Shown piece after piece: positions 33,198-34,209 of a stretch of 64,000 nt of DNA; positions within the stretch are counted from its first letter, which is position 1; each line of letters opens with the position of its first letter. This DNA is from Escherichia coli. GTDB taxonomy: Bacteria > Pseudomonadota > Gammaproteobacteria > Enterobacterales > Enterobacteriaceae. Both the position numbers and the translations under genes were made by a program. The DNA lies in NCBI RefSeq assembly GCF_044324875.1, contig NZ_CP172185.1, one strand, 5' to 3'. A model generated the notes under the pieces. That model was not told the origin of the DNA. It worked only from the letters and a program-made list of their open reading frames with translations, and did not search any database.

Positions 33198-33211
33198 TTA
33201 AGATTATTCCG

Positions 33212-33256
33212 CTGGCGGGTCGATTTATTTACGTAAATCGGCCCGCTTTCTTTTTA
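33212..33256 (+). terminator. Terminator-like hairpin after speA
   Basis: GCGGGTCGATTTA/TAAATCGGCCCGC imperfect stem followed by TTTCTTTTTAT. Confidence 0.45.
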
Positions 33257-33342
33257 TATATTCTTAAAAATAATTTAGCTGCTTTTCTTATTAAATAATC
33301 CCCCTACAATCGCTGCATTAATTAAATACAGAGGGAACGGTT

Positions 33343-34074
33343 ATGAAAAAAGGGAAAGTACGTAGCGCGTTGATAGCATTAGCCGTGCTGCTGGCCGGTT
33401 GTTCCAGTAATGCGCAGTATAATAGCAGTGCATCGGGCAATGTCGGCACCGCCTGGGGTGGGGATGTGCACTCATCGGTTCAGGGCGTATCTGCTGAGCG
33501 AGCCTGGCGCGATCCGGCAGAGATGATCGTTATTAGTTATTCGACTAATGTTCCTTCCGGCTATGACCGCGTTTATAGCATTCGTATTAACGAACTGGAA
33601 TATGCTATTCGCGATGGTAATTTTAATTCTCTACCTATTACGCGTTTTTATGATTCATCCAATAATGAACCACGCTATATTGTCCATGCCAGAGTCGGAA
33701 TGAATTATCAATTATATGTCCGTAATTACAGTCGTAACACCAACTACGAGATCGTTGCTACGGTTGATGGCCTGGATGTGCTGAACGGCAAGCAAGGTTC
33801 GCTGAATAACAACGGCTATATTGTGAATGCCGGAGATTCATTAGCGATTAAAGGATTCCGCAAAGATAAACATACCGAAGCGGCTTTTCAGTTCGCCAAC
33901 GTTGCTGATTCCTACGCAGCCAATTCGGCGCAAGGCGATGTGCGTAATACCGGGGTAATCGGCTTTGCCGCCTTTGAATTACAAGGTCCGACGCAAAACG
34001 CGCTGCCGCCGTGCTCTGGACAAGCCTTTCCGGCAGATAACAATGGCTATGCGCCGCCACCGTGTCGGAAATAG
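33343..34074 (+). CDS. Lipoprotein of unknown function (243 aa)
   Basis: Signal peptide with LAGC lipobox; RBS GAGGGA; lies in the speA–speB spacer where, as I recall, K-12 has no gene. Confidence 0.75.
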   Translation: MKKGKVRSALIALAVLLAGCSSNAQYNSSASGNVGTAWGGDVHSSVQGVSAERAWRDPAEMIVISYSTNVPSGYDRVYSIRINELEYAIRDGNFNSLPITRFYDSSNNEPRYIVHARVGMNYQLYVRNYSRNTNYEIVATVDGLDVLNGKQGSLNNNGYIVNAGDSLAIKGFRKDKHTEAAFQFANVADSYAANSAQGDVRNTGVIGFAAFELQGPTQNALPPCSGQAFPADNNGYAPPPCRK

Positions 34075-34141
34075 CAACCTCGCTTGATGCCTCGTCCATT
34101 TAAGGCGATAATTAGCACAAACTTGTGTTTCGCAAATCCAA

Positions 34142-34182
34142 CCCTTCCTCGTCGGGCCTAACGACGCGGAAGGGTTTTTTTA
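34142..34182 (+). terminator. Intrinsic terminator after the lipoprotein gene, upstream of speB
   Basis: CCCTTCCTCGTCG...CGACGCGGAAGGG hairpin followed by TTTTTTT. Confidence 0.6.
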
Positions 34183-34209
34183 TATCGACTTTGTAATAGG
34201 AGTCCATCC

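Follow-up and report, generated by a model that had tools for sequence, protein, structure and literature searches.

A predicted lipoprotein gene between speA and speB is probably ancestral in enteric bacteria and absent from K-12-type Escherichia coli

In the textbook arrangement of Escherichia coli K-12, the genes for the biosynthetic arginine decarboxylase (speA) and agmatinase (speB) are adjacent; in the K-12 derivative J53 they lie 137 bp apart with no annotated feature between them, in agreement with the original prediction, which described them as adjacent genes in K-12. Here we conclude that this textbook order is derived and that two thirds of E. coli, O157:H7 and ST131 included, depart from it. 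In the window that we analyzed (the whole stretch of 64,000 nucleotides of an E. coli genome), speA and speB are separated by a lipoprotein gene for which we use the working name X (ORF 33343..34074). X is already annotated: public databases list its exact protein under the names 'hypothetical protein' or 'lipoprotein', and generic unnamed RefSeq lipoproteins represent the same gene under the names 'lipoprotein', 'membrane protein' or 'hypothetical protein' (WP_000758914.1, 'lipoprotein', in O157:H7). In the Sakai numbering X would correspond to approximately ECs3813, as judged from tktA (ECs3810) and yqgB (ECs3815). Full-text literature queried by locus tag and keyword returned no study of X, and no transcript map, proteomic detection or experiment on it was found in the literature searched; STM3085 receives a single mention, as an off-target in an antisense study. 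As a genome feature X is ordinary, its presence varies and the change consists of its loss in laboratory lineages; as a protein it belongs to a lipoprotein family that is large, well conserved and unnamed, whose fold is predicted with confidence and which is invisible to K-12 genetics. We consider it likely that X is a vertically inherited, non-essential gene encoding a lipoprotein anchored in the outer membrane, and that it is neither a polyamine gene nor an insertion.

All features described below are on the plus strand of the window. The speA ORF (31221..33197, 658 aa) matches the annotated speA of K-12 and O157 in length and position, and the speB ORF (34210..35130, 306 aa) corresponds to the annotated K-12 and O157 loci. 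The spacer between the speA stop at 33197 and the speB start at 34210 measures 1012 bp, and the only ORF inside it is X, which starts with ATG at 33343, encodes 243 amino acids and ends, stop codon counted in, at 34074; the claim that about 1 kb with one lipoprotein gene separates the two genes is thus accurate. The gene is also single and intact, as had been claimed, and has its own ribosome binding site (RBS), GAGGGA, at 33331..33336, 6 nt 5' of the ATG, where a GGGA/AGGA motif is kept in other genera. The possibility that this is a chance, frameshifted or non-conserved ORF, which had been named as the case that would refute the prediction, is contradicted by the 53-75% identity of X in other genera and by its dN/dS of 0.07-0.12.

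Directly downstream of speA, a terminator scan located an intrinsic terminator at 33214..33257, made of a 15-bp stem (33214-33247) followed by TTCTTTTTAT. The hairpin has a dG of -23.4 kcal/mol (z -4.06), and when the stem was aligned across 12 enteric taxa, 96.5% of the cells were paired, with compensatory changes in 7 of the 12 pairs; the pairing was matched by none of 500 shuffles and by no slid register. The original prediction did not mention this element. Between it and the X ORF lies a stretch of 34% GC that contains TACAAT (33305..33310), a hexamer of the form TA...T in 12 taxa and our candidate for the -10 element of an X promoter, the -35 being weak; a consensus-based promoter scan did not call this promoter. 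Judging from these signals, the speA transcript would end at its own covarying terminator, and X would be transcribed from a weak promoter of its own and translated from its own RBS. X therefore looks like a separate transcription unit, given that predicted intrinsic terminators flank it and that the upstream one covaries.

On the other side of X, a promoter scan identified a promoter-like site, TTGATG-17-GATAAT (34084..34112), as a candidate speB promoter; its CT.GA and GATAAT do not vary among 10 taxa, the diverged K-12 allele included. It is followed at 34140..34181 by a terminator hairpin that is strong by folding, AACCCTTCC.CGTCG-GGCCTAA-CGACG.GGAAGGGTT plus a T-run. From Escherichia to Klebsiella the lower stem of this hairpin varies, the upper stem is constant and the loop GGCCTAA is nearly so. 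The hairpin had been described as X's own terminator; however, the last 77 bp of the spacer, comprising the hairpin and the speB RBS, are 100% identical in K-12 and other X-less genomes, where the hairpin lies 3' of speA, and it is thus not specific to X. Transcripts of X would stop at this hairpin, and the same structure would serve as the post-speA terminator in strains without X. The suggestion that X uncouples speB from speA is likewise poorly supported, since both alleles have a terminator between the two genes. The hairpin begins about 25 nt past the promoter-like site (window 34084-34209; L001:2452-2577 in the K-12 allele). A promoter firing into a terminator before speB suggests a speB leader or attenuator, or alternatively a short RNA of about 60 nt; an Rfam search of the spacer gave no match. 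The conserved pair of promoter and hairpin may merit attention as a regulatory leader.

The X protein begins with a textbook type II signal peptide (33343..33402), MKKGKVRSALIALAVLLAG|CSS, with a positive N-terminus, a hydrophobic core and a lipobox of the form [LVI][ASTVI][GAS]C that reads LAGC. The lipobox cysteine, Cys20, does not vary among 54 homologues and hardly varies among 94. Besides Cys20 the protein has two cysteines, Cys224 and Cys241, and it contains 9.9% Asn and 5.8% Tyr, such that its earlier portrayal as an Asn/Tyr-rich protein with an LAGC lipobox and a C-terminal Cys pair was correct. The signal peptide would be cut at LAG|C and Cys20 would be lipidated. According to the Lol rule, a lipoprotein with no Asp at position +2 is sorted to the outer membrane; because the +2 and +3 residues of X are both Ser, outer-membrane sorting is predicted, with the Ser at +2 routing the protein through the Lol pathway.

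Profile and model searches did not place X in any named group. Pfam, NCBIfam, PADLOC and PHROGs returned nothing but signal-peptide noise, Pfam yielded nothing significant or consistent when applied to 54 relatives and to 10 distant relatives of multiple lengths, a profile search matched no PDB sequence, and we found no family name, Pfam or NCBIfam model or solved structure; the first impression that the protein is not recognisable as a member of any family therefore holds. The family is nevertheless very large: of the representatives of clusters formed at 50% identity, 4199 match at E<=0.001, and 3256 still do so at E<=1e-10. Its named members belong to the Gamma-, Beta- and Alphaproteobacteria, and further members are unplaced, high-GC-looking metagenomic proteins with long disordered linkers. 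Conserved motifs are GTxWGE, YEIVATVDGLDVxxG, GFRKS..VAAFRF, SYAAN and NxGVIGxAxF, and the invariant residues include T36, G39, R53, Y66, Y122, N128, D142, G143, R173 and Y191. One metagenomic member of 297 aa (P0232; L093-L095) is circularly permuted: the sandwich core comes first, the 'GTxYGEG...' segment, N-terminal in X, is C-terminal, and the protein still ends in YAPPPP. Among viral structures the X model found uncharacterised proteins only, one of which, the virus-labelled BFVD entry A0A7S5RDU0 (241 aa, 26% identity, Foldseek E 4e-6), may belong to the family and be carried by a phage.

The structure prediction that had been asked for agrees with the beta-type character proposed for the protein: AlphaFold returns a confident all-beta sandwich, with a mean pLDDT of 82 that rose to 89.3 with a deeper alignment and values of 94-98 in the sandwich domain itself (residues 34-215; 33442..33987). 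A Foldseek search of the PDB with this model gave zero matches at E<=0.001. The top-ranked entries were SPOP MATH domains, and the closest folds that we can name are the MATH/TRAF beta-sandwiches (USP7 N-terminal domain, SPOP MATH, TRAF-C), all at marginal scores and with no sequence or Pfam match. X differs from them in being bacterial and predicted to be periplasmic and in having an extra N-terminal beta segment (GTxWGE...), the one that is permuted in some relatives, and we regard the resemblance of the modeled fold as weak. Behind the sandwich comes a C-terminal tail (residues 224-243; 34012..34071), Cys224 ... FPADNNGYAPPP-Cys241-RK, in which a motif at the very C-terminus is conserved: 273 of the 323 homologues fetched have [FWY]P..[YF]A.PP (FPxD..[YF]AxPP) at most 12 residues from their end. 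With the deeper alignment the pLDDT of the tail rose from about 40-55 to about 70, and beta-bridges were gained at residues 223 and 242, which suggests, on the strength of the model, that the tail docks on the sandwich.

As for what such a protein does, we propose only tentatively, as a best guess that is more likely wrong than right, that X acts in the envelope as a binding or protective protein with no enzymatic activity. A linker of about 13 residues would keep the compact sandwich in the periplasm, the FPxD..YAPPP tail would pack against it and, in enterics, a Cys224-Cys241 disulfide would probably staple the tail in place; in a binding role, conserved residues of the sandwich, aromatic and charged, would hold a peptide or glycan ligand. 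A more specific version, in which X is the enteric member of a very large unnamed family whose beta-sandwich uses a self-docking FPxD..YAPPP tail to serve an envelope function, such as protection from exogenous hydrolases or tethering to the wall, is speculative and on balance rather unlikely; if it is true, that function would have gone unstudied because K-12 and B strains are without the gene.

Among the rival functions, the one that survives best, and which we would still bet against, is that X protects, as an inhibitor or 'immunity-like' protein, against hydrolases acting in the periplasm, such as type VI effectors, lysozymes or proteases. X resembles MliC/PliC, PliG and Rap1a/Tai4 in that all are small, stand-alone, beta-rich envelope proteins of patchy distribution; it differs from them in having no sequence or fold match to any and no cognate effector nearby. 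A stand-alone predicted outer-membrane lipoprotein that bears no signature of an enzyme, occurs very widely and is lost in some strains would suit such a role. So would the gene neighborhoods in Variovorax and Acidovorax, in which an X homologue and, 3' of it, a gene for a secreted Rap1a-like protein lie in the his operon between hisD and hisC (L008:6001-7881 and L009:6001-7233, respectively); in Variovorax a SUFU-domain gene also follows X. The Rap1a-like neighbors score E 1.8e-5 and 7e-4, both under the Pfam cut-off, and together with the SUFU gene they give a weak hint of a protective or immunity-like role. Against it, the Rap1a-like neighbor is limited to the Comamonadaceae, none of the loci examined has an effector gene near X, and X evolves slowly, vertically and at a fixed locus, which is not how arms-race immunity genes behave.

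The location of X naturally raises the question of whether it acts in polyamine or arginine decarboxylase physiology, either as an envelope partner of SpeA or as a periplasmic binder of agmatine or putrescine. The stable speA-X-speB placement across the Enterobacteriaceae speaks for this, as does the reported association of SpeA with the envelope in the older literature, and genes of methionine and S-adenosylmethionine metabolism occur near X elsewhere: in Providencia the order is metB<-metJ->X->outer-membrane beta-barrel gene, and in Ralstonia X lies near ahcY. We nevertheless think that a polyamine role is improbable. The association of X with speA and speB is kept in the Enterobacteriaceae only, and in the loci examined outside this family X never adjoins either gene: in Gilliamella it is found near thrS and recO, in Neisseria near mltG, in Pseudomonas aeruginosa PA7 near a phospholipase gene, and in metagenome contigs among unrelated housekeeping genes. 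Predicted terminators enclose X, polyamines are made by the third of E. coli that has no X, and the protein is unlike any solute-binding fold. Across 80 genome loci and several metagenome contigs no conserved partner gene of X emerged. Because no partner is conserved and the polyamine genes are absent from its surroundings elsewhere, the speA-X-speB placement is best read as inherited synteny and not as a functional link.

Less probable still is that X is a second Lpp-like tether, bound covalently to peptidoglycan through a C-terminal lysine. Like Braun's lipoprotein Lpp, X is a predicted outer-membrane lipoprotein, and many X proteins end in (C/Y)RK where Lpp ends in YRK. Tails ending in CRK, CQK or YRK are frequent (CRK in enterics, YRK in the Comamonadaceae), 212 of 273 members have Lys or Arg within their final three positions, and X is absent from K-12, the strain used to catalogue peptidoglycan-bound proteins. 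However, Lys is the last residue in just 115 of these 273, other members end in R, Y, N, P or Q and some enterics in CRQ or CRR; the predicted fold is all-beta with no coiled coil, whereas Lpp is a helical trimer; and the tail is predicted to be docked, with a beta-bridge at 242, instead of hanging free. The Lpp-type models NF011925 and NF040598 of NCBIfam match only residues 8-31 (E 0.09-0.5), that is, the signal peptide. We set this reading aside on the grounds that the terminal lysine is not conserved and that the tail seems docked.

Returning to X as a vertically inherited lipoprotein gene, we searched 5426 complete E. coli genomes and found the X-bearing spacer in 3550 (65%), at 97-99% identity, and the K-12-type junction in 1863, in almost all of them at 100% identity. 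The alleles exclude one another: the 60 bp specific to K-12 occur in 1867 genomes, in one copy each, and none of these carries X. Strains with X include O157:H7, O55:H7, an O25b:H4-ST131 strain, APEC O18 and CE10; those without it include K-12, DH1, B, BL21(DE3) and ML35. Both alleles share the flanking genes and the 77 bp before speB, and CTTGA and GATAAT stand in the same register in both, so that the -35 and -10 hexamers of the K-12 segment are still aligned. What K-12 lacks is 875 bp holding the terminator of speA together with X and its candidate promoter. The first 60 bp of its spacer (L001:2441-2500) share only 58% identity with the 58 bp downstream of the X stop in the window (34075-34132), so the K-12 allele is not a clean, simple recent deletion of the carrier allele. 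The same segment is 60-68% identical to the carrier in other genera, so the divergence of the K-12 segment is of comparable size; the sequence around it is 97-100% identical to the carrier, and speA and speB of K-12 are ordinary E. coli genes. No second copy of the 60-bp segment occurs in any E. coli genome searched, no close relative or donor of it turned up among the sampled genera, and a metagenome scan for X-less speA-speB junctions returned E. coli-level sequences only. About one third of E. coli, K-12 and B included, thus have an allele from which X and the spacer upstream of it are missing.

X is dispensable under laboratory conditions, as indicated by its absence from the K-12-type allele and by its disruption in one strain. 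In that strain, E. coli 23CRST038 (L003, 1-4428), X is split in two by IS1, and a ygeQ - tRNA-Gly - actS segment with one IS1 copy on each side lies between the halves, an arrangement that looks like an IS1-mediated rearrangement. Separately, one cluster of 448 E. coli X sequences (P0025/L096), of which the representative was examined, has a protein that runs for 174 residues to the contig end and is X-like up to residue 167 only; this may reflect a recurrent assembly break, perhaps at an insertion sequence inside X in one lineage.

The direction of the change is indicated by other genera. X orthologues at 53-75% identity are found in Salmonella, Citrobacter, Klebsiella (aerogenes and oxytoca groups), Kluyvera, Raoultella, Intestinirhabdus, Phytobacter, Kosakonia and Entomohabitans. 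Citrobacter, Klebsiella, Kluyvera, Kosakonia, Phytobacter, Intestinirhabdus and an Enterobacter sp. share the order speA-X-speB; in Salmonella speA-X is followed by an island between X and speB, and Entomohabitans has an additional ORF that separates X from speA. Within Escherichia, three of four divergent genomes (E. whittamii, Escherichia sp. MOD1-EC7003 and one labelled E. coli) have speA-X-speB; in Escherichia sp. E1V33 X is directly 3' of speA and the ORF caller did not recover speB, and in E. albertii X is directly 5' of speB and the contig ends inside X. Since X occupies the same position downstream of speA in about 10 enteric genera and in other Escherichia, its presence between speA and speB is ancestral and the K-12 arrangement derived, and X would have been in place since before the enteric genera diverged. 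The dN/dS of X, 0.075-0.094 in comparisons with other Escherichia and 0.07-0.125 in those with other genera, indicates that it is under purifying selection; the corresponding values for speA against other taxa are 0.005-0.03, and the X protein evolves approximately 10 times faster than that of speA or speB.

The original prediction implied that X entered horizontally as a strain-specific insert and interrupted an ancestral speAB pair. This outgroup synteny contradicts such an insertion, which may be dismissed as highly improbable. In its favor are the short K-12 gap, the patchy occurrence of the family in distant Proteobacteria and the low GC (48.6%) and GC3 (46%, against 62-63% in speA and speB) of X, the low GC3 being its sole atypical trait. 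Against it, the same site is occupied in those genera and Escherichia species as well as in most E. coli with complete genomes, conservation extends to the terminator of speA, the -10-like element 5' of X and the promoter-like site 5' of speB, inspection of the window sequence and ORFs revealed no integrase, transposase or border repeats at its edges, and its dS is saturated between genera, as is expected for vertical descent. Given the conserved synteny, the low GC3 does not argue for recent transfer; persisting despite long co-residence with speA and speB, it fits weak codon adaptation and low expression.

Two further observations concern Citrobacter. One Citrobacter sp. has a second, relocated copy of X (64% identity) beside ynb-like lipid genes and a transposase, and also near a DUF4026/DUF2314 protein. 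Finally, a contig labelled Chryseobacterium sp. 18061 (L019) has, relocated X copy included, the same gene order and coordinates as Citrobacter sp. 18056 (L020), which is probably due to contamination or mislabelling of one of the two assemblies.
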